Origin: an uncultured Bdellovibrionales bacterium | Lineage (GTDB): Bacteria; Patescibacteriota; Minisyncoccia; Moranbacterales; GWC2-37-73 | Direction: 5' to 3' | Assembly: GCA_964484505.1 (NCBI GenBank) | Contig: CAZAFB010000006.1 | Location: 14,337-78,336 of the forward strand | DNA: 64,000 nt | Shown: positions 2,515 through 64,000 of the stretch, piece after piece | How the letters are laid out: each line of letters starts with the position of its first letter | Numbering within the stretch: position 1 is the first letter of the stretch | Notes under the pieces: generated by a model | Databases searched by the model: none | Seen by the model: the letters and a program-made list of their open reading frames with translations, nothing else | What the model was told of the DNA's origin: nothing | Program-made: the position numbers and the translations under genes

Positions 2515-3264
2515 TTACAATGCTTCAAATATAAGTGGCAGATATTCAGCACAAGGATTTGTTTTTTCAGCCAACCAAATTTCTTTGTCTTTCATATCTT
2601 TGGAAATATTTATAATCTTAGAAAGCTCCGGTTTTTCCCCTTTTTCCAAAAGACTTTTTTCGAAATCAACATAATGCTTCGTGAATTCGGAAATATTCAT
2701 AGGAATCTTTGCCCAATACACCACTCCTAAAAAGTCATGCGGGCCGCTTTCTACAATTACCCAAGGATAAAACTCGCTTATTTGATTGGAGCTGTTCACA
2801 GACAGTCCAACTTCTTCAGCCATCTCATTGGCCGCGTTCCTCTCAATATCTATAATTCGACCATCATCAAAAAGGTCTTCTCTGGTTATACCACCTCCAA
2901 TACATTGGATCCTGCCAGGCAACGCCGTACTTCCTCCCATCTCTCCAAATATTAATTCACCATCAGAAGTTTCTATCATTATTGAGGAATGCACAACTCT
3001 GCAGGCATGTTTTTCTTCAATAATTCCATTGATAGTCGCCAGATAATGAGCATAATCAGAAAGAGCTATTTCTATCAATATTTCACTTTCATTTTCCTCG
3101 ATTTTTGAAATCGTAAAAACATCGCCGCGCCTAAAGTTCTTCCCACTTTCAATCAACTCTTCCCAATATTTTTCAATTTTGAAAATCACCTCTTCCGGCA
3201 GATTAATCTTCTCACCGGAATATGATATTTTTGGTGTTTTTTTTAAGAGAGTGAGCTTGTTCAT
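2515..3264 (-). CDS. hypothetical protein with degenerate Nudix-like motif
   Basis: GGGITRED...ERNAANEMAEEVGL resembles Gx5E...REUxEExGU but has an insert and lacks the canonical R. Confidence 0.4.
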   Translation of the reverse strand: MNKLTLLKKTPKISYSGEKINLPEEVIFKIEKYWEELIESGKNFRRGDVFTISKIEENESEILIEIALSDYAHYLATINGIIEEKHACRVVHSSIMIETSDGELIFGEMGGSTALPGRIQCIGGGITREDLFDDGRIIDIERNAANEMAEEVGLSVNSSNQISEFYPWVIVESGPHDFLGVVYWAKIPMNISEFTKHYVDFEKSLLEKGEKPELSKIINISKDMKDKEIWLAEKTNPCAEYLPLIFEAL

Positions 3265-17271: not shown

Positions 17272-17275
17272 AATG

Positions 17276-17346
17276 CACGGGGTGAGGGAATCGAACCCCC
17301 GCCAAAAGTTTTGGAGACTCTCGTTCTACCACTAAACTAACCCCGC
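17276..17346 (-). tRNA. tRNA-Trp (anticodon CCA), no encoded CCA end
   Basis: Folded by hand: acceptor GCGGGGU/ACCCCGU, anticodon loop CUCCAAA, T-loop GGUUCGAUUCC. Confidence 0.85.
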
Positions 17347-17417
17347 CTTCGTCCGCCGGAGCGGACTTCGGCGGGCAAGCCCGCATAGCCGCGAAGGCGG
17401 AATTTTCTATTTCAAAA

Positions 17418-17582
17418 TCACTTCATCTCCTTATGCAGCGTATGCTTTCTGCAGCGATTGCAGAATTTGTTCACTTCCAATTTTTCCTTGATTTTCTTCT
17501 TGTTGCGTGAAGTGTAATAATTAATTTCCTTGCATTCACTGCAACGAAGCTTCACCATATTTTCCTTAGTTTTAGTCGCCAT
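17418..17582 (-). CDS. rpmG: 50S ribosomal protein L33
   Basis: [29 protein letters not shown]...[14 protein letters not shown]; four-Cys zinc ribbon typical of L33. Confidence 0.8.
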
Positions 17583-17908
17583 GTTTGTCTGTGAGGTACG
17601 AGCAGCTACAAACATGAGCGTCCCGCACCAATTCTCTTATTAAAATCTAAATTATTTATTCACTAAGCCATAGGCGTTTCCGCGCGATAAAATGACAAAT
17701 ATCACTGACCAAATTCGGAATTTGGTGCGGGAGGCCATTCCTATTTTTTTTGTTGTCGGCTGGCAACTGCCAACAAACTTGGAGCCGCTTAGCGGGATTT
17801 CACGTCGTTATCACTCCTTGAAAACCCACGGTTTTCAAGACTTTCCTCCAACAGAAAACTCCCGTTTTCCGACCCTTTCCCTGTTCAATTCTTAACTCAA
17901 AAGAGTTG

Positions 17909-17981
17909 AGCCGTTGTGCGGGATTGAACCGCAGACCTCATCCTTACCATGGATGCGCTCTACCAACTGAGCTACAACGGC
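17909..17981 (-). tRNA. tRNA-Thr (anticodon GGU)
   Basis: GCCGUUGUAGCUCAGUUGGUAGAGCGCAUCCAUGGUAAGGAUGAGGUCUGCGGUUCAAUCCCGCACAACGGCU. Confidence 0.85.
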
Positions 17982-17989
17982 AACATATC

Positions 17990-18176
17990 AATTAACTTAT
18001 AAAAAACAGCCTCGATGGATTTCCGCGTCGCTCATTTGCCGTCGCAAACGCGCTCCTTGTCCTGGGTAGCGCCAAATCCTCGCTTGCTCGAATTTGTCGG
18101 CGTTCGCTGCGGAAATTTCCTGCTGAAAATTTTCTAGCTCACTGCCACCCGTTCGAATCCCCTTTCACTATTCATA
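17990..18176 (-). ncRNA. candidate GC-rich structured RNA 'segment 2' between tRNA-Tyr and tRNA-Thr
   Basis: About 75% identical to 17109-17235, with shared hairpins. It sits inside the polycistronic tRNA unit. Confidence 0.4.
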
Positions 18177-18221
18177 TCAATGTTTTAAATTAATGCCTTG
18201 AGAGGCATTAATTTAAAACAT
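18177..18221. other. perfect ~19-bp AT-rich hairpin immediately 3' of tRNA-Tyr
   Basis: atgttttaaattaatgcct-tgag-aggcattaatttaaaacat. Confidence 0.5.
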
Positions 18222-18225
18222 TATG

Positions 18226-18308
18226 TGGGCAGGGAGGGATTCGAACCCCCGAAGACCGAAGTCGGCTGATTTACAGTCAGCTGTAATAGACCACTCTACC
18301 ACCTACCC
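18226..18308 (-). tRNA. tRNA-Tyr (anticodon GUA), long variable arm
   Basis: GGGUAGGUGGUAGAGUGG...GCUGACUGUAAAUCAGC...GGGGGUUCGAAUCCCUCCCUGCCCA. Confidence 0.85.
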
Positions 18309-18319
18309 ATTTGGTTTAT

Positions 18320-18724
18320 TCATAAACAGCTTTCCAAGCTCTTGAAATCATCAGCTGAATGAATGTGCATTTTTTGCTTATTTTTACTAGGCTCTATTCT
18401 TAATTTAAATGTACTTCTATTAATTTCAGAAACAGGAATATAATAAATATCTCTCGTCTTCCCATTGTAAGCAGCAATAACATCTATCTCTTTATCGGAA
18501 TAGTGCAACACTGACCAATTATTACTGCTTCTGCAATTAACCTCCATCGCACCATTTTTTGGCGTGACATACTTAACTTGTATCCTGATAAATCTGCCAT
18601 CCACTTCTGCAACCAAATCATATCGATTGTTTTCCCCAATAGGCATCAACACCCTCCAACCATCCTCAATAAGACGTGCGACCACATACATTTCAGCAAT
18701 ATAGCCCTTTGTCTTTTTATTCAT
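18320..18724 (-). CDS. PD-(D/E)xK nuclease, Hjc/archaeal Holliday-junction-resolvase-like
   Basis: GYIAEMYVVARLIEDGW...YDLVAE...IRIQVKY follows the G..E(R)E...D..(E/Q)xK pattern of Hjc-like nucleases; 134 aa. Confidence 0.45.
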   Translation of the reverse strand: MNKKTKGYIAEMYVVARLIEDGWRVLMPIGENNRYDLVAEVDGRFIRIQVKYVTPKNGAMEVNCRSSNNWSVLHYSDKEIDVIAAYNGKTRDIYYIPVSEINRSTFKLRIEPSKNKQKMHIHSADDFKSLESCL

Positions 18725-18748
18725 TGTTTTATATTACCAATTTCCCTG

Positions 18749-18820
18749 AGCCGACGAAGGGATTTGAACCCATAACCTTCACTTTACAAAAGTGTTGCTC
18801 TACCGTTGAGCTACGTCGGC
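18749..18820 (-). tRNA. tRNA-Thr (anticodon UGU)
   Basis: GCCGACGUAGCUCAACGGUAGAGCAACACUUUUGUAAAGUGAAGGUUAUGGGUUCAAAUCCCUUCGUCGGCU. One U-U mismatch in the T-stem. Confidence 0.75.
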
Positions 18821-53745: not shown

Positions 53746-54606
53746 TTATTCCAACGGACTTTTGATATTTTTCAGATTATTACTTGTGACTTTCGTGTAT
53801 ATTTGGGTCGTTTCCAGCTTTGCATGCCCCAAAAGCTCCTGGATATATCGTATATTAGTACCAGCTTCCAGTAAATGGGTGGCAAAAGAATGACGAAGCG
53901 TATGGCAAGAAACCTTTTTCATTATTTCAGCTTCTTCGGCAGCTTTCTTCACAATCTTCTCGGCACTTTCAGAAGTCAGATGTCCATTGCCTTGCGCCCC
54001 GGTGAACAAATAGTCCGCAGGTTTCTTTAGCAGCATCTGTCTTTTCAAAATAGGTATTAATTTTTCAGATAAAAGCGTGCAGCGATCTTTCTGTCCTTTC
54101 CCGCATCGCACCAGAATAAGGCCTCTATCCAAATCAAAATCACGCATTCGTATCTTGATAACCTCACTCACACGAAGTCCGGCCGAATACATTAGCGAAA
54201 TCAAAAAATGATGCTTGGGATTTGTCGTCACCGCAAGCATTCTTTGGATTTCCTCCTTACTAAGAACGGTCGGTAAATAGTTGGTCTTTTTGGCACATTT
54301 TATGTCAAAAAAGAACTTCCTATTGAGCACTTCCCGATAATAGAATTTCAAGGCATTAAGCGCAACATTTAACGTGGAACTTGCGCAACCTCTGTCTATT
54401 ATCGATTCCAAATATTTTCGAATATCATCATTCGTTACCTCCTTTGGGCTCTTTTTTATAAACTCCAAAAAAAGCCTATTGTAAAGCAAATATGATTCAG
54501 TTGTTCTTCTGCTAAAACCGCGAATCTTTAATTCCCTCTCCAAATTATATACATATTCTCTTTCTTCTGTGGTTTTTCTGCTATTTTTATGATAATATGT
54601 ATTCAT
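53746..54606 (-). CDS. tyrosine site-specific recombinase, XerC/XerD-like
   Basis: R..KGxKDR..HTLRHSFATHLL..GHAKLETTQIYTKV (catalytic Y). There is no IntI-specific insertion. Confidence 0.85.
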   Translation of the reverse strand: MNTYYHKNSRKTTEEREYVYNLERELKIRGFSRRTTESYLLYNRLFLEFIKKSPKEVTNDDIRKYLESIIDRGCASSTLNVALNALKFYYREVLNRKFFFDIKCAKKTNYLPTVLSKEEIQRMLAVTTNPKHHFLISLMYSAGLRVSEVIKIRMRDFDLDRGLILVRCGKGQKDRCTLLSEKLIPILKRQMLLKKPADYLFTGAQGNGHLTSESAEKIVKKAAEEAEIMKKVSCHTLRHSFATHLLEAGTNIRYIQELLGHAKLETTQIYTKVTSNNLKNIKSPLE

Positions 54607-54717
54607 AAGGCGTTATGATTACATCAAAATTATACCATGACACCCAATCTAAGCCAACAATTTAACTAGTAAGCATAAAAGGAGTTATGTGAAATTAATT
54701 TTTCCGCCCAAAAATAC

Positions 54718-55323
54718 ATGAAAGAAGAATTTAAAAAAATTTGGGAAATAGCCCTCCCTTATCAAGACAAACGAGACGATAAAGGTCATGCCAGAATTGT
54801 AACTGAATATGCTATTAAACTATGCGAGACTGAGAGCGTTAACGACATGATTATTGTTCCGGCTGCCATTTTACATGATATAGGCTGGAGTCAGCTTCCC
54901 AAGGAAGATTGGCAAGTTATTTTTGACCCAAACAAAACGCCGGAAATGGAATATGCGGTACGTATAAAGCACCAAGACGAGGGTGTGAAGTTAGCAGAAA
55001 AAATACTTAACGAAGCAGGCTATTCCCCAAATTTTTTTAAACCCATATTGGAAATTATCTCTCAGCACGACACCAGAAAAAAATTTTTTTCAGATGAAGA
55101 CGGTGCTATGCGTGATGCAGACAAGTTGTGGCGTTACTCCAAGACAGGTTTTGAAGCCGACCTTAAGCGAAATAATTTCACGTTCGATTTTCTTTATGAC
55201 AAAATGATGAAGCGGATTGATGAAAAAAATTTTTTCTTCTTCGAGTCAGCCAAGGATATTGCCAAGAACGAGCTTAATGATAGAAAGGAAGAATTTTTGG
55301 GCGGAAAAATTAACATCACATAA
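54718..55323 (+). CDS. HD-domain phosphohydrolase
   Basis: H...HDIG...D motif (AAILHDIGWSQL). Confidence 0.7.
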   Translation: MKEEFKKIWEIALPYQDKRDDKGHARIVTEYAIKLCETESVNDMIIVPAAILHDIGWSQLPKEDWQVIFDPNKTPEMEYAVRIKHQDEGVKLAEKILNEAGYSPNFFKPILEIISQHDTRKKFFSDEDGAMRDADKLWRYSKTGFEADLKRNNFTFDFLYDKMMKRIDEKNFFFFESAKDIAKNELNDRKEEFLGGKINIT

Positions 55324-55383
55324 CGGCTCGTATCAGGTTCCAGAAATTTGCTCAATTATATTTCAAGGAGTACAAATTTCTTC

Positions 55384-55637
55384 CACCCAAATTTTTGCCT
55401 CTCTTTTTCTTTTATATTACACTAAGGAAGAGGGCCAAAAACTTCTGATACAAGCGAACGTTCAGCGCCATCGCTCGCTTCGCTCACTCTGGCACTGAAC
55501 GGGCGCAGCTTGACAGCCTCATTCGTCACTGCCGCATCGCTCCGCTCGCGACAGCGCCGAACTCGGCTTATGCGAAATAATTGTCACCACGCTAAGGCGT
55601 GGCTCCAATTACATCGCATACGCCGCGCCCGTTATGT
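55384..55637 (+). repeat. GC-rich structured intergenic repeat, copy A (~250 bp)
   Basis: The core cgttcagcgccatcgctcgcttcgctcactctggcactgaacgggcgcagc...gcgtggctccaattacatcgcatacgccgcgcccgttat is nearly identical to copies at 60862-61096 and 63213-63466. Confidence 0.85.
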
Positions 55638-55818
55638 GAAATAAAATTCTTTTTCTTTTTTAAATTTGCTTTTTTATAATAAGGAAAAATAAGTTTTTTT
55701 ATCTTTTATAGAGGGGTATAAGGTGTCTTTTTTGCTCCTGGAATCGCAAAAAAGACGATTTTATTTTTATTATAAAATACGCTATAATATATGCAGTTAA
55801 ATCTGCTATTATTAAATT

Positions 55819-57483
55819 ATGCCAAAGCTTAAAGATATCCCAAAATTTGATCGCCCCAGAGAGAAATTTCTGGAAAAAGGGCCTGATGCGCTAACTGATA
55901 GCGAGCTTTTGGCTATTTTGCTTGGTAGCGGAATCAAGGGGACGAATGTAAAGGTATTGTCACAAAAGATTTTAAGGAAATTTGGTGATAATTTGTTAAA
56001 TGTCTCGGTCGATGACTTAATGCAAGTTTCGGGAATCGGACAGGCGAAAGCATTGCAAATTTCATCGGCACTTGCTTTGACGAGAAGGATTTTTAACAAG
56101 CAAAACTCCCTGGATAATTTGATTTTATCTGCGCAAGACGCTGTCGCTCTTGTTTCGGATTTGAAGGATAAAAAGCAAGAACATCTGATTTGCCTTTATC
56201 TCAATGCTCGCAATGCCTTGATAAAAAAAGAGACAATTTCAATTGGCACCCTTGATAAAAGCATTATTCATCCAAGAGAAATTTTCGCCCCAGGACTGGA
56301 AATGCACGCCGCAGGAGTGATACTTGTCCATAATCATCCTTCCGGTGATTCAAGTCCAAGCGAGCAAGATAAACAAGTTGCAAAAAGAATTATTGAAGCA
56401 GGTCAATTGATGGGCGTAAATGTTGTTGATTTTCTGATTGTAGCAAAAAACGGAGTACATAGCATACTTGGTGATCTAAAAAATACCGAGCTGACGAACA
56501 CGGAATATGTCGCAGAAGGATCTCAAGCTTCTCTGTTCGATTTATTGGTAGATGCAAATCAATCATATTTTTATAACAAAAACTCAATGATACAAAAGAA
56601 AAACAATAAATTGAAATTCATAGATTTATTTGCGGGAATTGGCGGTTTTCATATAGCATTTCACAATGCTGGAGCAGAATGTGTCTTCGTGTCCGAGTGG
56701 GACGGACCTGCTCAAAAAACATACAGACACAATCTTTACAAGGTTTCTCCCGAAATGTTTGATTCCGGAAATTTTATCGGAGATATTACGAAAGTTAAAC
56801 CTAAAGATATCCCTGATTTTGATATTTTGACTGCGGGATTTCCTTGTCAGCCATTTTCTCAGGCCGGTTTTAAAAAAGGGTTTAGCGAAACTCGCGGAAC
56901 TTTGTTTTTTGATATTGTAAATATTATAAAAGAAAAAAAACCAAAGGCTTTTTTTCTGGAAAATGTACGTGGCTTATTGAGTCATGACGATGGAAAGACA
57001 TTTAAAACCATAGAAAGAATTATCAAGGAGGAGTTGGGATATTCTTTTTTCCCTCAAGTAGTTAAGGCTTCCGATTTTGGCTTGCCGCAACATCGCCCAC
57101 GTCTTTTTATGGTTGGATTCAAAGATAAAACGATACATTTCAAGTTTCCCGAGCCAGTGAAAGAACTAAAATACACCTTGTCGGATATATTCAACGGAAA
57201 ATGCGATAAAGACATTGGATTTACTTTGCGTGTTGGTGGGCGCGGAAGCAAAATAACCGATCGTAGAAATTGGGATGCTTATCGAGTTAATGGAAAAATT
57301 GTTCAGCTTGGACCGAAAGAAGGATTAAAAATGCAGGGCTTTCCCGATTGGTACGAATTTCCACCGAACTTCTCAAGAGTTCAAGCCATGAAACAACTTG
57401 GCAATTCTGTTGCCGTCCCTGCAATTCAAGCGGTGGCCGAGGAAATTGTTAAAACATTAAAAAAACATGGAAAAAGGAAATAA
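55819..57483 (+). CDS. RadC-like JAB/MPN domain fused to C5-cytosine DNA methyltransferase
   Basis: N-terminus: DSELLAILLGSG...HNHPSG (RadC/UPF0758). C-terminus: FAGIGGF (motif I), GFPCQPFSQAG (motif IV), ENVRGL (motif VI). Confidence 0.8.
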   Translation: MPKLKDIPKFDRPREKFLEKGPDALTDSELLAILLGSGIKGTNVKVLSQKILRKFGDNLLNVSVDDLMQVSGIGQAKALQISSALALTRRIFNKQNSLDNLILSAQDAVALVSDLKDKKQEHLICLYLNARNALIKKETISIGTLDKSIIHPREIFAPGLEMHAAGVILVHNHPSGDSSPSEQDKQVAKRIIEAGQLMGVNVVDFLIVAKNGVHSILGDLKNTELTNTEYVAEGSQASLFDLLVDANQSYFYNKNSMIQKKNNKLKFIDLFAGIGGFHIAFHNAGAECVFVSEWDGPAQKTYRHNLYKVSPEMFDSGNFIGDITKVKPKDIPDFDILTAGFPCQPFSQAGFKKGFSETRGTLFFDIVNIIKEKKPKAFFLENVRGLLSHDDGKTFKTIERIIKEELGYSFFPQVVKASDFGLPQHRPRLFMVGFKDKTIHFKFPEPVKELKYTLSDIFNGKCDKDIGFTLRVGGRGSKITDRRNWDAYRVNGKIVQLGPKEGLKMQGFPDWYEFPPNFSRVQAMKQLGNSVAVPAIQAVAEEIVKTLKKHGKRK

Positions 57484-58555
57484 TAAAGGAGAATGGTCGG
57501 AATTTTACGCTTTCCTAAAAATATTAGATGAAAGAAAAATTTTTGCCGCTGATAAAAATCTCGAAATAATTGACGGGAAATTTTTTGTTTTTCATAAAAT
57601 TATCAGGGAGGAAAAAGATGAATCGACTAAAATTTACGATATTTCCCAGTCGGCAACTCAAGTCTTGATAACCGATGAGGATGGTAGGCTATTGAAAGAG
57701 TTTAAAACCGATTCACTCAAGGAAAAAACTTTAAAAATATTTGAAAGAATAAAAAACGAAAAAAGTCGTTCTTTCAATATTCCCGAAGCGCAAGAGTTGA
57801 TGAAAGAATTGCTTTGCACAAAAGTCAAAGCCAGCAATGCAAAAAAAGCCGATTTAGTGGCGATTATTTACGATAGAATTTCAAAAACAATGCCAATGCT
57901 CGGTTTTTCCATAAAGTCCATGGTCGGTGGTGCCTCCACATTGTTGAATCCCGGGCAAACAACAAATTTCATTTATGAAATTAAAGGATTCAGTGGGAAT
58001 GTTTCAGAAGTTAATGCAATTCAAACAAAAGCTCAAATTCGCGACCGTGTAAGAAAAATTGCGGAGCAAGGCGGAACTTTTGAATACATGGGTGTTTCAA
58101 ATGAACAATTTGGATTCAATATGAAAATGATTGACACAGTGTTGCCTGAATTTATAGCCCAAATGCTTTTGGACTTTTTTTCAAACTCACACAGAACGGT
58201 TGCTGATTTGACAAAAGAGCTGTCCGAGAATGAGAATATCAATAAAAAATTTGGTTTATCGCTGACAAATTATGAATACAAAATTAAAAACTTTCTGGAT
58301 GCGGTTGCGCTCGGAATGGTGCCAAGTAAACCATGGGACGGATTTTCAAAGGCACACGGAGGTTATATTGTGGTAAAAGAAAACGGCGATGTTGTTTGCT
58401 ATCACTTGTATAACAGAGATGAGTTTCGTTCCTATTTATATGAAAATACCAGATTTGATGCACCAAGCACGACCAGGTATGGCTATGGTGAATTATATGA
58501 AGAAAATGGCAAACTGTTTTTTAAATTGAATTTGCAAATCAGGTTTTTGAAATAA
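57467..58555 (+). CDS. type II restriction endonuclease (HpaII-like family, tentative)
   Basis: Position between the m5C MTase and vsr. N-terminus NKGEWSEFYAFLKIL resembles the HpaII REase family. Confidence 0.5.
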   Translation: MEKGNNKGEWSEFYAFLKILDERKIFAADKNLEIIDGKFFVFHKIIREEKDESTKIYDISQSATQVLITDEDGRLLKEFKTDSLKEKTLKIFERIKNEKSRSFNIPEAQELMKELLCTKVKASNAKKADLVAIIYDRISKTMPMLGFSIKSMVGGASTLLNPGQTTNFIYEIKGFSGNVSEVNAIQTKAQIRDRVRKIAEQGGTFEYMGVSNEQFGFNMKMIDTVLPEFIAQMLLDFFSNSHRTVADLTKELSENENINKKFGLSLTNYEYKIKNFLDAVALGMVPSKPWDGFSKAHGGYIVVKENGDVVCYHLYNRDEFRSYLYENTRFDAPSTTRYGYGELYEENGKLFFKLNLQIRFLK

Positions 58556-58562
58556 AACGGGT

Positions 58563-58967
58563 ATGGCTGATATTTTTTCCAAAAAGAAGCGCAGTGAGAT
58601 AATGTCAAAAGTTAGAAGTAAAGACAGTAAGATAGAAGTTGAATTTCGGAAAAAATTGTGGAAAGCGGGATTCCGTTATCGTAAAAACTCAACAAAATAT
58701 TTCGGCAAGCCTGACATTGTTTTGCCGAAATACAAAACCGTAATTTTCATAGATTCTTGTTTTTGGCACGGATGCAAAAAACACAGCTCAATACCCAAAA
58801 CTCGAAAAAAATTTTGGGAAACAAAAATTGAACGCAATAGAGAAAGGGACCAGGAGGTTAGTAAATATTACAAAAAACAGGGTTGGAATATATTTAGAAT
58901 TTGGGAACATAATTTGAAAAATGATTCAGAAAAGGTTTTGAATATAATTTTAGAAAAAATTATTTAG
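58563..58967 (+). CDS. vsr: very-short-patch-repair endonuclease
   Basis: FIDSCFWHGC motif. Confidence 0.85.
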   Translation: MADIFSKKKRSEIMSKVRSKDSKIEVEFRKKLWKAGFRYRKNSTKYFGKPDIVLPKYKTVIFIDSCFWHGCKKHSSIPKTRKKFWETKIERNRERDQEVSKYYKKQGWNIFRIWEHNLKNDSEKVLNIILEKII

Positions 58968-58968
58968 C

Positions 58969-60666
58969 ATGAAGCTTAAAAAAATTGTTATACAAAATTT
59001 TAAATCGATTATAAATGATGAGGTTATTTTTAATGACTTCACTTTTTTTGTTGGAAAAAATAATTATGGGAAGTCTAATTATTTAAGAGCGGTTGACCAT
59101 TTGCTTAGTTTTTCAAAAACATACGGAAATGTCAAAGAAATTCAAAATAATAAGGAAAACCCAATTGTTATTGACGGATGGTTTGAGGGTGTAGAAAAAT
59201 ATACGCCACAGCTGAAAGACAGTAAACACAAAGAGGCTGTTGAAAAATTAATTAACAGTGACAATTTAATTCAGTTGCGTTTAACTATAAACTTAGACGG
59301 TCAAGGCGAAACATCTCTTATTGATCCTTCAAATAGTGAAACCGTAAATCCGACTGGTTGGTCAACAAACTGTAAAAAGTTATTTCCAGAAACTATTTTT
59401 ATTCCTGCTACTGCAGACACTGCTGACGAACTGCAAGAAAAAGCTTCAACAGCATTATCAAAAATAAAAAAAGAAGTAATGCAACAGTTTTTTACTTCCT
59501 TATCGTCAAAGATTGATACAGCATTTGAGCCAATCGATAAATTTTTACATGGCGAAGAAAAAGACAGATCGGAAGATTTAAAAAATCTAGAAAATGATTT
59601 TGCTGAAGAAATGATGGGTGAATTTTCTACAACAAAGCCATCAATAAAATTCACTTTGCCAGACTCAAGTTTTATCGGCAAAGGAATGAAAATTAACCTT
59701 CATGATGGGTTTCACGATTGCGATATTGAGCAAAAAGGACATGGACTCCAGAGAACGGCTCTCTTTGCTTTAATTCGTCTTTTATCCAAGCACAATTCTT
59801 CAAGCCAAACAAAACCAGCACCAATATTTTTAATTGAAGAACTGGAAGCGTTTTTGCATCCATCTGCTCAAAAAAGATTAGCTGAAAGCATGGAAAAAAT
59901 GGCTGGAAAATATCAAACAATTGCAACAACCCATTCACCATTCGTTTTGACCGAAAAGCTTTTGGGCGGTTATAGAAAAATATTTCGTAATGATAAAGAA
60001 GGATCCAAGTGTTGCGGACCACAGAAAAATCATGATGAATTTAAAAAGAAAGACTATGATGTCGTTAAAAATTCTTTATCGCACACTGGAAATTTAATAA
60101 GTCTGTTTTCAGACATTGTGGTAGTTGTTGAAGGAAGGGAGGATAGCGGTTTTTATCCAACCGTATTGGAATTATTGAAAAAAGAAGAAAACGGACTAGT
60201 TTCCTTTGTCGAAACTGTTGGGGGAGGAAATAGTAATTTTCATGTATCGTATAACTTTTTCAAACTTATGGGATTCAAGAAAATTTTTGTTATCTGTGAT
60301 TTGGATTGTCTCTTTGATACAAATTTTAAGGAGTTGTTAAAAACTGTTTCTGTTGACTCTGATTTTATTGATGATTTTAGGAAAGATATCGGCTTTTCTG
60401 GTGCTGGACAGCCAGGAACGGAGTTTGTTTTATCAAATATTGAAAAAATTGATAATAAAAAAATAACAGATAAAATTTCTGAGTTGGCAAAAATAAATAT
60501 TTTTGTATTAAAAAATGGAACACCGGAAAATTATTATTCAGATGATTTCAAAAAGGACAATAGCGCAAGAAATGTTAAAAAAATATGGGAATATTTAACA
60601 AGCAAAGAAGATTTGAAAAACATAGAAGAGCTAGGTAGTATCATGAATCCGATTTTAAATTCATAA
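58969..60666 (+). CDS. OLD-family ATP-dependent nuclease (ABC-type ATPase plus Toprim)
   Basis: N-terminal IQNFKSI...FVGKNNYGKSNYLRAV (AAA_15/21). Q-loop and signature regions. C-terminal Toprim VVVEGREDSGF...FVICDLD. Confidence 0.7.
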   Translation: MKLKKIVIQNFKSIINDEVIFNDFTFFVGKNNYGKSNYLRAVDHLLSFSKTYGNVKEIQNNKENPIVIDGWFEGVEKYTPQLKDSKHKEAVEKLINSDNLIQLRLTINLDGQGETSLIDPSNSETVNPTGWSTNCKKLFPETIFIPATADTADELQEKASTALSKIKKEVMQQFFTSLSSKIDTAFEPIDKFLHGEEKDRSEDLKNLENDFAEEMMGEFSTTKPSIKFTLPDSSFIGKGMKINLHDGFHDCDIEQKGHGLQRTALFALIRLLSKHNSSSQTKPAPIFLIEELEAFLHPSAQKRLAESMEKMAGKYQTIATTHSPFVLTEKLLGGYRKIFRNDKEGSKCCGPQKNHDEFKKKDYDVVKNSLSHTGNLISLFSDIVVVVEGREDSGFYPTVLELLKKEENGLVSFVETVGGGNSNFHVSYNFFKLMGFKKIFVICDLDCLFDTNFKELLKTVSVDSDFIDDFRKDIGFSGAGQPGTEFVLSNIEKIDNKKITDKISELAKINIFVLKNGTPENYYSDDFKKDNSARNVKKIWEYLTSKEDLKNIEELGSIMNPILNS

Positions 60667-60861
60667 TACAATACTACAATAAGGAGTTTTTGTTTTTGGG
60701 CATTCACCCCTTACCCCTCTGCCCAAAATCAAAAACAAAAAAACTTATTTATCATTTAGAATAAAAGCAAATTTAAAAAAGAAAAAGAATTTTACATCAC
60801 ATAACAAGGCATATCCGGTTCAAAAATTTTGCACTTTATAATAAAATCAAGGAAAGCAAAA

Positions 60862-61096
60862 TTTTCTCTCCCAAATTTTTCTTCCGCTAAGCTACAGAAA
60901 AACTTCGGATATGCCTAACGTTCAGCGCCATCGCTCGCTTCGCTCACTCTGGCACTGAACGGGCGCAGCTTGACAGCCTCATTCGTCACTGCCGCATCGC
61001 TCCGCTCGCGACAGCGCCGAACTCGGCTTATGCGAAATAATTGTCACCACGCTAAGGCGTGGCTCCAATTACATCGCATACGCCGCGCCCGTTATG
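60862..61096 (+). repeat. GC-rich structured intergenic repeat, copy B
   Basis: See copy A. Its 5' AT-rich part is shorter. Confidence 0.85.
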
Positions 61097-61208
61097 CGCA
61101 ATCGCAAAAAACCTCTCTTTATTAATTCATTTAATAATTTTGGCGAAATGCGGATGCAGGTCGAGAATAACTCAAATGTAATAGATAATTAATTTAAGTA
61201 AAAAATTT

Positions 61209-61685
61209 ATGAGTGAAAAAATGATGGGGCTAGAACAAGTTGGCCCAAATAAAGAGCACTTGCAAAGAGCCACGGATTTTAAAAATGTAAGAGAAAATGC
61301 ATTAGAAGATAGGCGCGAAGCAAAGATAGAAACCTCAATTGAATTAAAGAAATTTAATCCCTGGCAAAAAGATACTGAACAATGGCAGCAATTTGAAGAT
61401 TTCTGCCACGAAGAACTTCCAAAATATGAAGCCTTTGTTAATGAGAATGCAAAAAAGATAATTGCAGAACTTCTCCATGCTGGCACGCAAGTCACAGAAA
61501 ATCCAGATTATGATGGCTATAAAAGTTTTGACATACTTGATCAGAGTGGTCTTGTGGCTCATTTTGATGGGGGATGGGTTGATGCTGGTGATTGGGATAA
61601 GGGATATGCATTTCATTTATCAGGCTTTACGCCGACTCAACAAACAGCAGCAGTAAAATGGATAGTAAAATTTGAAGAAAAATAA
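61209..61685 (+). CDS. hypothetical protein
   Basis: ORF only. Confidence 0.35.
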   Translation: MSEKMMGLEQVGPNKEHLQRATDFKNVRENALEDRREAKIETSIELKKFNPWQKDTEQWQQFEDFCHEELPKYEAFVNENAKKIIAELLHAGTQVTENPDYDGYKSFDILDQSGLVAHFDGGWVDAGDWDKGYAFHLSGFTPTQQTAAVKWIVKFEEK

Positions 61686-61821
61686 ATCGCCAAAATTATA
61701 AATGCAGAAATACAATTAAGGAATGAGGCTTTTCGCGACAGCGTATAACAGCCCATATCTGGCTACAGGAAATTTCAAAATCTATTTTAATCCTCTTTTA
61801 TTAAAGCAATTTTTCATAAAA

Positions 61822-62475
61822 ATGAATAAGGAACAAATCGTAAATCAAACTGCTGACTATATCAAAACTAAACTCACCGGCGAAGGTTCTGGTCATGACT
61901 GGTGGCATGTTTATCGTGTGTGGAAAAATGCTGTTCACATTGGCAAACATGAAAACGCAGATTTGTTCGTCGTTGAACTTGCTGCGTTATTACACGATAT
62001 TGCTGATTGGAAATTCAACGATGGCAATGACGATGTCGGTCCGCAGTTGGCAAGAGAGTGGCTAGAAAAATTAGAGGTTGATGAGGCGGTGATTTCTCAT
62101 GTTTGCCAAATCATCAAAGACGCTTCGTTCAAGGGAGCGGGCGTCATGACCGAGATGAAAACAATCGAGGGTATGGTTGTTCAAGACGCTGATCGATTAG
62201 ACGCGATTGGTGCTATTGGAATTGCTAGAACCTTCGCCTACGGTGGTGCGAAAGGACGAGAAATGTATAATCCCGAAATTAAACCTGAAAAACACGAATC
62301 TTTTGAGCAGTACAAAAACAATCAAAGTCACACAGTGAATCATTTTTATGAAAAATTGCTACTCTTGAAAGAATTGATGAATACTGAAACTGCGAAAAAA
62401 ATTGCCGAGAAGCGACATAAAGTGATGGAAGAATTTTTAGACGAATTCTTTCAAGAGTGGGAAGGAAAGGATTAA
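61822..62475 (+). CDS. HD-domain phosphohydrolase
   Basis: GHDWWHVYRV...LLHDIADWKF...DADRLDA. Confidence 0.65.
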   Translation: MNKEQIVNQTADYIKTKLTGEGSGHDWWHVYRVWKNAVHIGKHENADLFVVELAALLHDIADWKFNDGNDDVGPQLAREWLEKLEVDEAVISHVCQIIKDASFKGAGVMTEMKTIEGMVVQDADRLDAIGAIGIARTFAYGGAKGREMYNPEIKPEKHESFEQYKNNQSHTVNHFYEKLLLLKELMNTETAKKIAEKRHKVMEEFLDEFFQEWEGKD

Positions 62476-62485
62476 AACAAATTTT

Positions 62486-62560
62486 GAAAATTTTCCTCCG
62501 CTCAAATTTTCCTTCACTACGTTTCGGAAAACTTCAGATATGTACAAACGTTAGACAAAA
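62486..62560 (+). repeat. partial copy (5' part only) of the GC-rich repeat family
   Basis: ctcaaattttccttcactacgtttcggaaaacttcagatatgtacaaacgtt, then diverges. Confidence 0.5.
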
Positions 62561-62797
62561 TTTTGCCGATAATTGTTTTGTAAAAAATGTTTGTGCTGGT
62601 AAAAAAGTATTTTGAAATAATAAAATTTGATATATAAAATCGGCAAAACATCGTCTAACACTGTGTACCTGGTTTCATGAAAAGGAATTCAACAAATAAT
62701 CTTTACAATTTCAAATGCCATTTTTTGGGATTTTTTGGGAAAAGAAAACGGCCTTCAGTTTTGGCTGAAGACCGTCGTGTGCAAATTCTCGCACATT

Positions 62798-63058
62798 TTA
62801 TTCCGCGGTATTTTTGTCGGTTTTGCAGAATAAATTTACAAAGAACAGCTTGATTTTACTTGGCGGTGGCGGTGGCGGAAATGTAGTGGTTGCATCATGC
62901 TTTGATCTTCCACAACCCCCACAATACTTCGTGAATTTCCACAGTTCCGTACCACACCAGTTGCATGTTGTCATTGGCACCATTTCGCCACCACAGTTAT
63001 CACAGAATTTTCTATAACCTTGTCTTCCACACTGTGAACACATCTTGTTGGCCATAAT
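62798..63058 (-). CDS. small zinc-ribbon protein with poly-Pro tail
   Basis: Four CxxC pairs (CSQCG...CDNCG...CNWCG...CGGCG). Confidence 0.4.
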   Translation of the reverse strand: MMANKMCSQCGRQGYRKFCDNCGGEMVPMTTCNWCGTELWKFTKYCGGCGRSKHDATTTFPPPPPPSKIKLFFVNLFCKTDKNTAE

Positions 63059-63212
63059 AATGAACCTCCCTCGTGTTTTTTTGAACAATTTTACACAAAA
63101 TTAACTTCAAGCAAGTATAGCAGAAAATAATGATTATGTCAACTATTTTTCCCAAAAAATCCCAAAAAATGGCTCAAATTAAGGAAATTATTTGTTAAAT
63201 TCCTTTTCATTT

Positions 63213-63466
63213 CACCCAAATTTTTGCTTCTTTTCTCTTTATTGATATAATATGGGAAGCGAAGCAAAAACTTCAGATACACAGAAACGTTCAGCGCCAT
63301 CGCTCGCTTCGCTCACTCTGGCACTGAACGGGCGCAGCTTGACAGCCTCATTCGTCACTGCCGCATCGCTCCGCTCGCGACAGCGCCGAACTCGGCTTAT
63401 GCGAAATAATTGTCACCACGCTAAGGCGTGGCTCCAATTACATCGCATACGCCGCGCCCGTTATAC
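63213..63466 (+). repeat. GC-rich structured intergenic repeat, copy C
   Basis: See copy A. Confidence 0.85.
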
Positions 63467-63595
63467 GAAATTTTGTTCAAAAATATTTTTTTATTTTATA
63501 TTTGAGCCCTTTTGAAATTTTTTTGGAAAAGGAAAACGCGCCAGAGGTCCGAAGACATGACGCGTTGCATGACGAGAAAGCACTGTTCTCGCTTA

Positions 63596-63988
63596 TTAGT
63601 TGGCCGGAAACTCCTCGAAACACAGGGCGACGGTCTGCTCGTGTGCATTATAGAGCGCACGCATATCGAGCCATTGTGTGTCGCGTCCATCATCCGGCTG
63701 AAGGCCAACCGCATTGCCCTCAAAGAACAGCGTACCTTCGCCGAGCGTGATCTTCTGACCCACCTTTGGGGTCTTCGGGAACACGCCGTGGAAGAGGTCG
63801 CCGATATGCCGTGACTGTCTGGTTTCTTTCACGATAGCGATGAGGCGACCGCGCTTGCCAGCCTTCACCTGAACAAGGTGTATCGGCTCCTCGTTTTCGA
63901 GAGAAACGTACAGCATGACACTTCCGTAGCGATCAGATCTGCGCTCGGCTCCGTTCCAATTCAGAATACCTGTTCCTAGTTCCTGCAT
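63596..63988 (-). CDS. hypothetical protein in a GC-rich (~55% GC) segment
   Basis: Good SD GGAGGAAUAAAC upstream. Composition is very different from the rest of the window. Confidence 0.35.
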   Translation of the reverse strand: MQELGTGILNWNGAERRSDRYGSVMLYVSLENEEPIHLVQVKAGKRGRLIAIVKETRQSRHIGDLFHGVFPKTPKVGQKITLGEGTLFFEGNAVGLQPDDGRDTQWLDMRALYNAHEQTVALCFEEFPAN

Positions 63989-64000
63989 GTTTATTCCTCC

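Follow-up and report, generated by a model that had tools for sequence, protein, structure and literature searches.

The region from position 53746 to the end of the 64,000-nt stretch analysed here (the window; contig CAZAFB010000006.1 of assembly GCA_964484505.1) is probably a chromosomal integron-like gene-cassette platform of a candidate phyla radiation (CPR) bacterium (Patescibacteria, Moranbacteria-like). It would comprise a tyrosine recombinase gene, an attI-like insertion site beside that gene and a divergent array of cassettes that end in folded, attC-like sites. Judged by its sequence, the platform is best filed as an integron variant that is Xer-like and lacks the I2-helix domain of integron integrases. 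A first-pass annotation had proposed a novel attC-like family of sites used by a Xer-type recombinase in an integron-like array, with a GC-rich repeat of 185 bp as the attC-like site at the end of each cassette. The layout, the type of recombinase and the variation between strains bear this proposal out, but the part assigned to the GC-rich repeat does not stand; the real cassette-terminal sites are AT-rich elements located just upstream of it.

The cassette-end sites are AT-rich and approximately 90–160 nt long. Each consists, in order, of an R'' box (ACATCnnnnAAC; consensus ACATC-nnnn-AAC), 1–5 nt, an L'' box of 8–11 nt, a variable loop, AACTT, the L' box, nnAAC and GTT, and the next cassette opens with nnnn-GAAAT. 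The cassette unit therefore reads TT nnnn GAAAT..., cargo, ACATC nnnn AAC, L'', loop, AACTT-L', nnAAC, G. Most loops of this species carry CCCAAATTTTTG together with two covarying hairpins. A curated set of 21 sites from five arrays of two species shows no variation in AAC or GTT; its R'' consensus is ACATC-GYAT-AAC, and two mismatch positions of the R box are conserved in it (GAAAT opposite ACATC). Many R boxes are identical to the integron consensus pairs GTTAGGC/GCCTAAC and GTTAGAC/GTCTAAC. The attC inverse core RYYYAAC and core GTTRRRY with a G|TT crossover are thus found here, with the junctions at GTT (a vertical stroke marks a crossover or breakpoint).

Covariation was assessed in the same 21 sites, using 12 nt of R'', 9 nt each of L'' and L', and the first 12 nt of the site's own cassette, taken from the upstream junction kilobases away. 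R''/R' and L''/L' covary: paired cells make up 85.5 %, as opposed to 71.1 % in shuffles, and there are 59 compensatory cells against 15.6 +/- 3.0, a number reached by 0 of 500 shuffles. Changes on both sides occur in 12 of 21 pairs. The R'' tetranucleotide perfectly complements the start of its own cassette in 13 of the 21 sites (mean 3.52/4), and that of the next cassette in 2 (mean 1.90/4); none of 10000 shuffles reaches 13. Along one array of the second species the own-start pairs are GTGC/GCAC, AGGC/GCCT, AGCT/AGCT, GTGC/GCAC, ATCG/CGAT and ATCG/CGAT. In the window, the start of the third cassette (GTT|ATGC) pairs with its own R'' (GTAT-AAC) via a G-T wobble. A 41-nt inverted repeat around the first HD-domain gene (54675–54715 / 55293–55333) links the start of cassette 1 with its R'', and a 69-nt terminal inverted repeat (55631–55699 / 60737–60805) encloses cassette 2 with its restriction block. 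Like the 67-nt repeats around the zinc-ribbon gene, they lengthen the pairing of a cassette's start with its own R''. Since R'' and its flanks complement the first bases of the same cassette, both ends form one site on a circular cassette. On such a circle the two ends would form one long stem running into the L box, which is the logic of integron attC sites.

When folded as single-stranded DNA (ssDNA), the bottom strand is the more stable one at each of the 17 sites folded (mean difference 3.3 kcal/mol), because C-A mismatches of the top strand become G-T pairs in the bottom strand. Covariation, the own-start rule and the preference for the bottom strand thus all point, in silico, to a folded site.

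The insertion site is defined by comparison of strains. An identical recombinase protein is encoded on 17 public contigs. On its constant side lie glycosyltransferase, holB-like and PMT genes. The other side varies, and holds the HD gene and HpaII system (as in the window), small open reading frames (ORFs) and Fic, a HinfI system, a 219-aa ORF and NUDIX, or the GC-rich repeat unit itself. All 17 contigs agree up to ...AAAAGGAG|TT (54684|54685), that is, ...AAAAGGAGTT / ...GCATAAAAGGAGTT, with GGAGTT ending at 54686 of the window, and then diverge into ATGTGAAAT, GTACGCC, GTGCGAAAT, CGGGGAAAT, AGGCGAAAT or the start of the GC-rich unit, CAGCGCC. A common breakpoint followed by unrelated cassettes indicates that insertion is site-specific and takes place beside the recombinase gene, hence an attI-like site. 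A second strain has different attI-proximal cassettes but the distal ones in common with the window's array (L002 compared with L011), and homology between the two resumes exactly at GTT; an internal breakpoint in a further sample (L013) also falls at GTT, with a different neighbour and no GC-rich unit. A tie between the array and gene-content variation among strains is supported by the 17-contig comparison and by these internal GTT breakpoints.

The junction ...A GTT|nnnnGAAAT is also present in other species and in more distant relatives. The spacing of the attI-like site fits an 11-6-11 geometry; its arms are alike in just 6–7 of 11 positions, and the right arm is swapped with each insertion. 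The spacer is not conserved, being AACCAG in the second species. In the window the spacer AAGGAG (54679–54692 region) is a perfect Shine-Dalgarno sequence, followed by an ATG TGA start-stop formed across the junction. One first cassette starts with CGGG-GAAAT in two assemblies (L006/L008) and with AGGC-GAAAT in a third (L009). Only AGGC matches the cassette's own R'' (GCCT), and CGGG recurs in that array as the start after its second site. This hints that the exchanged segment could include the four bases after GTT.

The features of the locus are as follows.

53746–54606, minus strand: tyrosine recombinase, 286 aa, IntI/XerA-like, without the ~44-aa IntI-specific insert.
54668–54695, plus strand: attI-like insertion site with 11-6-11 geometry, AGTAAGCATAA / AAGGAG / TTATGTGAAAT; crossover G|TT at 54684|54685 or within GTT.
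54685–55462, plus strand: cassette 1, with an HD-domain gene (54718–55323) and an attC-like site (55313–55462) made up of R'' 55313–55324, L'' 55327–55336, L' 55445–55454, spacer CGAACG and GTT 55460–55462.
55463–55633, plus strand: GC-rich core copy A, a putative cargo-less module bounded by GTT.
55634–60922, plus strand: cassette 2, with a RadC-M.HpaII fusion, R.HpaII, Vsr and an Old-family nuclease; site with R'' 60794–60805 and GTT 60920–60922.
60923–61093, plus strand: GC-rich core copy B, 100 % identical to copy A.
61094–62552, plus strand: cassette 3, with a gene for a 158-aa protein; site with R'' 61738–61749 and GTT 62550–62552, and an HD gene (61723–62475) within the variable loop of the site.
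62553–63291, plus strand: cassette 4; site with R'' 62648–62659 and GTT 63289–63291, and a zinc-ribbon gene (62798–63088, minus strand) within the variable loop.
63292–63462, plus strand: GC-rich core copy C, 100 % identical to copies A and B.
63463–64000, plus strand: start of cassette 5, 50–55 % GC, with a gene for a 130-aa protein (63596–63988, minus strand); extends beyond the window.

The genes of cassette 2 together span 55819–60666, and those for the 158-aa protein and the second HD protein 61209–62475. The gene order given by the first-pass annotation (recombinase on the minus strand, HD gene, restriction-modification (RM) block, two genes, a further gene, GC-rich segment) is right, as is its remark on the composition of the last segment, which has 50–55 % GC from approximately 63530. 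On a matching public contig the array continues for ~4 kb beyond the window, up to a glycosyltransferase gene and mreB. The whole array measures ~13 kb (window-equivalent 54687 to ~67900), lies between conserved chromosomal genes and contains 8 cassette-end sites.

The GC-rich repeat family noticed earlier beside the divergent recombinase is real. A stretch of 179 nt occurs in three direct copies that are 100 % identical (55457–55635, 60917–61095 and 63286–63464). The 171 nt between the GTT junctions, here called the core, have 60.8 % GC, compared with 40 % in the whole window, and a 47-nt core probe has 3 matches in the window with 0 expected by chance. The pairings named at first pass were recovered in the folds: acgttcagcgcc with ggcactgaacg, aacgggcgc with gcgcccgtt, and the hairpin ccacgc-taag-gcgtgg. 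The fold of the repeat is far more stable than that of shuffled controls (z-scores −4.5 to −10.7). Its minus strand folds better than its plus strand, both as ssDNA (−80.2 vs −66.6 kcal/mol) and as RNA (−109 vs −76.9 kcal/mol), and the ssDNA minimum free energy of the core is −53.7 kcal/mol for the bottom and −40.6 kcal/mol for the top strand.

The first hairpin of the core consists of R' (GTT|CAGCGCC), a 21-nt loop and R'' (GGCACTGAAC). It is followed directly by a GC-type L box, GGGCGC...GCGCCC, which encloses two more hairpins of R'/R'' type with the form TT-nnnn-...-nnnn-AA, one of them being CTT|ATGC-GAAAT-AATTG...CAATT-ACATC-GCAT-A. The core is preceded by ...AAC GTT and followed by GTT nnnnGAAAT, so that a crossover triplet stands on both sides. 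Copy B had been said to begin with GCCTAAC, the classical inverse core; this heptamer is present at 60911–60917, but it is the 3' end of the L' box together with the spacer and does not open the repeat as an inverse core.

The core is an optional component of the arrays. It is missing at the junctions between cassettes 3 and 4 and between cassettes 6 and 7 of this array. In sample L013 cassette 5 is joined straight to a different cassette end, ...AAC GTT|ATACGAAAT, without a core, and in strain L010 the core is the first unit at attI. Cores shortened to 44 nt and 122 nt continue into other cassettes at core-internal TT|nnnnGAAAT points. A 79%-diverged copy of the core has kept its hairpins by compensatory changes, such as GTT-CGGG-GAAAT with ATTTC-CCCG-AAC. 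No core copies were found outside arrays, either in the window or in any locus retrieved. A 'partial repeat D' had been placed at 62528–62552; the upstream flank AAAACTTCAGATAn6AACGTT is indeed shared there, but the core is absent and the sequence diverges after the flank. Copy D is flank without core because the AT-rich left flank is itself the cassette-end site.

Two candidate functions of the core were rejected: peptide coding, given that the ORFs are inconsistent between copies, and service as the attC of the gene cassettes, given the two junctions without a core. Being bounded by GTT, optional between strains, built of R'/R''-type hairpins and confined to arrays, the GC-rich repeat is read as a separate, optional, cargo-less cassette-like module that would use the same GTT crossover. 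The perfect identity of its three copies would be best explained by recent copying through the recombinase. The core may be a selfish mini-cassette, or it may serve the arrays, for instance in loading the recombinase or in insulation. At a locus with a 64%-identical recombinase (L221), the first 330 nt after attI hold a GC-rich module that has no ORF and is unrelated to the core, yet shares its GGGCGCGG/CCGCGCCC L box. Likewise, a cassette junction in another Moranbacteria species holds a different GC-rich, ORF-less and strongly structured module (L098, array coordinates ~3020–3213).

The recombinase combines the Pfam catalytic domain PF00589 with PF13495, a SAM_4 N-terminal domain. Its best NCBIfam model is NF040815 (XerA), which is passed with 238.6 bits against a cut-off of 220 and carries the product name 'site-specific tyrosine recombinase/integron integrase'. 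The XerD and XerC models score below the XerA and integron-integrase models. The earlier proposal of a Xer-type enzyme is supported in so far as the recombinase is non-canonical and Xer/XerA-like. The top PDB sequence match is VchIntIA (2a3v, E 4.9e-49), followed by XerA. In the comparison with 2a3v, IntI residues 186–239 are unmatched, and query residues 195–208 take their place. Canonical IntIs have an additional 43 to 46 aa at the insert point, and the recombinase and its CPR relatives differ by ~0 in a panel of GTDB relatives, which was drawn from a GTDB scan with the recombinase alignment and in which relatives are <=47 % identical among the matches listed. The AlphaFold2 model (pLDDT 75.9) has no helix at 194–211, just a short connection, and its top Foldseek matches are again 2a3v and then XerA. 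Sequence and model together predict an enzyme that is IntI/XerA-like but without the domain defining integron integrases. The I2-helix domain has been presented as the innovation that lets integron integrases recombine folded single strands (PMC4792948, PMC7790495), and archaeal IntIs retain the additional domain. The family of the recombinase is strongly conserved, with 70–91 % identity across many metagenome-assembled genomes (MAGs), mostly of Moranbacteria (Patescibacteria in the source names).

Comparable arrays are widespread. In another Moranbacteria species (GCA_000989885.1), whose recombinase is 75 % identical, the synteny is unchanged, and there is an array of 9.4 kb with the site pattern described here and with ...AAAACCAGTT|GTGCGAAAT as its attI junction; assemblies of this species vary in their distal cassettes. 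Genomes whose recombinases are 78 %, 74 % and 64 % identical have their arrays at other chromosomal positions. Metagenomes were scanned with the pattern AACTTCN{10,14}ACGTTNNNNGAAAT, whose 16 fixed bases are expected to give chance matches, and at least 120 loci were returned. The full site pattern, with nnnnAAC and an L'' complementary to L', has at least 51 matches in 44 of the 120 loci listed, where ~1 would be expected by chance. The L box of these 51 sites is typically 11 bp (9–11), the spacers are 1–2 nt on the 5' and 4–6 nt on the 3' side, and the median length is ~107 nt; AAC is invariant among them, GTT being fixed by the search pattern. At least four of the listed metagenome loci encode insert-less recombinases of 37–48 % identity; two were inspected, and both show the attI junction and the own-start rule. 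The site pattern is seen in metagenomes beside recombinases of 45–48 % identity, and thus appears to occur with CPR recombinases down to ~45 % identity.

Additionally, GTTnnnnGA[AC]AT is found 60–85 nt upstream of 42–45% identical enzymes in Peregrinibacteria, Gracilibacteria, other Patescibacteria and a Woesearchaeota MAG. A Woesearchaeota MAG (L033, DPANN, 42 % identity) has ...GGCATAATAGGTGTT|ATACGCAAT at 181 nt upstream of its recombinase gene, a sequence similar to the attI-like junction, and its contig stops at that point. Insert-less relatives in Bacteroidota, Proteobacteria and Firmicutes had no arrays beside them in a strict site-pattern scan, whose background was 0–3 matches.

By analogy, a mechanism of the integron/CTX-phage type would be the most economical. 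The recombinase would bind the double-stranded attI at two 11-nt arms separated by a 6-nt spacer, and would also bind the folded bottom strand of a cassette site, in which the 11-bp R box and the 8–11-bp L box, with an asymmetric bubble between them, could act as a hairpin mimic of the 11-6-11 core site. One strand would then be exchanged at G|TT, and replication would resolve the resulting junction, in the manner of integrons and of CTX-phage integration by XerCD; excision between two sites would free circular cassettes. Taken to its full extent, the reading is that of an I2-less integron of ancestral type, in which a Xer/XerA-like recombinase without the integron-specific domain shuffles cassettes via folded ssDNA sites. 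Such integrons would be widespread in Moranbacteria and other CPR, possibly also in DPANN. They would represent a living intermediate between Xer/dif and integrons and a main route of defence-gene turnover in these very small genomes, with gene-less GC-rich hairpin cassettes as parasites or helpers. This whole is given slightly less than an even chance.

Several observations weigh against the integron-like reading in general. The integron-integrase model TIGR02249 is matched with 230.6 bits, under its cut-off of 265, and the match is split in two stretches. With the XerA cut-off passed and the family so conserved, the recombinase may primarily be a housekeeping Xer. It lacks the I2-helix domain, and the argument for ssDNA use at this locus comes solely from covariation and strand asymmetry. 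In the covariation analysis the L-box windows were picked partly by complementarity; the R-box columns, fixed by position only, give the same signal. Extrahelical bases, a hallmark of attC, are represented by a one-base bulge of L' in sites T1, T3 and T7 only. Two genes inside site loops and one 5.3-kb cassette of four genes are unusual for integrons. Finally, all evidence is computational and comes from assemblies, many of them metagenomic, in which repeats may give rise to chimeric joins, although the sequence around the attI breakpoints is unique.

The same chemistry underlies an account in which the recombinase is a housekeeping dimer resolvase (a single Xer, XerA-like) and the insertion site is its dif. 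The cassettes would then be Xer exploiters resembling the integrative mobile elements exploiting Xer (IMEX), stacked like CTX, TLC and RS1 at dif in Vibrio cholerae, some of them as folded single strands. This account overlaps with the integron reading, and the two are not mutually exclusive; on its own it is judged unlikely. Its basis is an enzyme whose best model, over cut-off, is XerA, whose family is strongly conserved and which has no paralogue in the 64 kb or in the flanks of relatives, together with the GTTnnnnGA[AC]AT motif upstream of related recombinases in Peregrinibacteria, Gracilibacteria and the Woesearchaeota MAG. PaXerA is known to bind stem-loops. Single-recombinase Xer systems with dif beside the gene exist (XerS/difSL, XerH/difH). 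The site itself shares the 11-6-11 layout of dif, and its crossover falls at one end of the spacer (PMC8371274), yet its left arm is only weakly symmetric to the right arm. GC skew is ~−0.2 on both chromosomal flanks here and shows no switch in a second species (L096) either, which places the site away from a replication terminus or origin. The locus moreover occupies different chromosomal neighbourhoods across Moranbacteria, and the cargo consists of promoter-to-terminator gene cassettes without mobility or replication genes. A search of the window for a second palindromic 11-6-11 site gave 18 matches against 13 expected, which is chance level, and the matches with 1 mismatch fall only inside the three cores.

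The remaining alternatives concern the GC-rich repeat. The first-pass annotation had allowed for a structured non-coding RNA (ncRNA) or terminator, and the repeat could on these lines be an ncRNA gene, terminator or insulator between operons, unrelated to recombination. The very stable fold (z −8.0 for the minus-strand RNA at −109 kcal/mol, −4.5 for the plus strand), the perfect conservation of three copies and the retention of structure in the diverged copy while its sequence changes would all agree with an RNA. No terminator-like T run was found at any copy, however, nor any promoter enrichment. Rfam 15 gave no match at the gathering threshold, nothing credible at E up to 10 on copy A and, window-wide, only four tRNAs, and the suggestion gained no positive support. 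The core is instead delimited by the GTT crossover of the cassettes, is placed directly at attI in one strain and is absent from the equivalent junction in another. Its shortened forms run into cassettes at TT|nnnnGAAAT points inside the core, and its hairpins follow the R'/R'' pattern within arrays. An RNA or terminator unrelated to recombination is therefore regarded as improbable.

Still less probable, to the point of being nearly discounted, is a miniature transposable element or a selfish repeat resembling repetitive extragenic palindromic (REP) sequences, with strain differences generated by homologous recombination or assembly chimeras. Identical copies within an AT-rich genome, and contigs that often break at the core (L010, L094), are what such a repeat might produce. 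The confinement of the core to arrays in the window and the retrieved loci, and the lack of terminal inverted repeats or target duplications beyond the shared GTT, do not fit. Nor do the strain breakpoints, which fall at one nucleotide position in unique sequence by the recombinase with unrelated DNA after it, and the own-start rule is not expected from homologous recombination or transposition.

The integron reading can be set against known systems. As in sedentary chromosomal integrons, the recombinase gene is divergent from the array with the insertion site between them, the cassettes are stacked in a single orientation, and those proximal to attI vary between strains. The G|TT crossover lies in a GTTRRRY-like box (many boxes are literally GTTAGGC/GCCTAAC), and site structure (R box, unpaired spacer, L box and variable loop) is conserved over sequence, with the bottom strand folding better. 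R'' complements its cassette's own first bases, some cassettes have no ORF, and the cargo is of defence and stress type. Unlike in integrons, the recombinase has no I2 helix and falls under the TIGR02249 cut-off. The R box is 11–12 bp with conserved GAAAT/ACATC arms and a fixed 2-nt mismatch, the L box is 8–11 bp, and AACTT and ...AAC are conserved by L'. Cassettes carry cassette-specific terminal inverted repeats of 15–69 nt, and some genes lie inside site loops. The host also differs, being a CPR bacterium: a partial search of the literature on integrons in CPR/Patescibacteria or on integrases without the additional domain returned no report of integrons there and no such system.

Xer/dif with its IMEX and CTX phage resembles the locus in having a small Xer-like recombinase without an accessory domain, an 11-6-11 target, a hairpin that reconstitutes the core site, a plausible single-strand exchange with replicative resolution, and tandem stacking at one site. 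It differs in that the site here is not at a GC-skew switch and that the cassettes, dozens of different ones sharing one site pattern, are without phage or plasmid functions. The complementarity of R'' to its own cassette start implies excision as circles, unlike Xer/IMEX. Archaeal XerA (P. abyssi 4a8e, T. acidophilum 5hxy) and the 'Cand' subgroup (PMC8138268) belong to the best curated family, are among the closest structures and share the two-domain architecture, SAM-like and catalytic. XerA is described as resolving dimers at a single dif, and the 'Cand' group, Xer-related recombinases of candidate phyla, is assumed to do the job of Xer (Smyshlyaev et al. 2021, PMC8138268). Within the accessible literature, neither has a cassette array or a family of folded sites attached to it. 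The pdif modules of Acinetobacter plasmids are likewise discrete gene modules with inverted Xer-type sites that are moved by the host Xer. Unlike the array here, pdif is a plain 28-bp duplex, with no folded L box or loop, no platform by the recombinase gene and no single-orientation array.

Defence and stress genes (RM, Old, Fic, NUDIX, MazG and HD) are frequent among the cargo of the arrays. In the 5.3-kb cassette 2, RadC-M.HpaII (55819–57483) has an N-terminal RadC/JAB part (UPF0758_N and RadC) followed by DNA_methylase (cytosine-5), and R.HpaII, Vsr and the Old-family ATPase-nuclease lie downstream. The motif AGAGGGGTATAAGGTG, with its complement CACCCCTnACCCCTCT, is located ~75–95 nt inside the cassette ends (55710–55725 and 60705–60720 in the window), and is also present in arrays L005, L006, L096 and L098. 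Cassettes with AGAGGGGTATAAGGTG hold unrelated cargo (HpaII RM, HinfI RM, Fic and a methyltransferase) in two species, and the motif is array-confined save for one loose reverse-strand match (L011). Unrelated cargos seem to share a terminal inverted-repeat 'chassis' of ~90 nt.

The second HD gene, in cassette 3, is bracketed by inverted repeats (61770–61794 / 62468–62492), as is the zinc-ribbon gene of cassette 4 (62677–62743 / 63147–63210, 67 nt). These two genes in site loops, the zinc-ribbon gene on the opposite strand, could represent nested insertions or unusually large loops. Near-perfect inverted repeats also occur inside the coding sequences of both HD genes, of 24 nt (54730–54753 / 55018–55041) and 21 nt (61805–61825 / 62340–62360), respectively. 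The 130-aa protein of cassette 5, whose gene runs opposite to the array strand, and an adjoining 63-aa ORF had no match in protein-family searches. Elsewhere in the window, a tRNA cluster (Trp, Thr, Tyr, Thr; 17275–18820, minus strand) accounts for the sole Rfam or ARAGORN matches.

On the prevailing view, integron integrases arose from Xer-like enzymes acting on double-stranded DNA by gaining the I2 helix for folded single strands, and the locus may bear on how this took place. Sites of attC architecture together with a recombinase without I2 and a dif-like 11-6-11 target would either challenge the requirement for I2 or represent the intermediate that has been missing; in both cases the origin of integrons is opened to experiment. 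Such arrays would be overlooked by detection tools built on the presence of the IntI domain. For the CPR, in which mobile elements are poorly known, the arrays would reveal a major and so far unannotated route of gene flow for RM, Old, Fic, NUDIX and HD cassettes.

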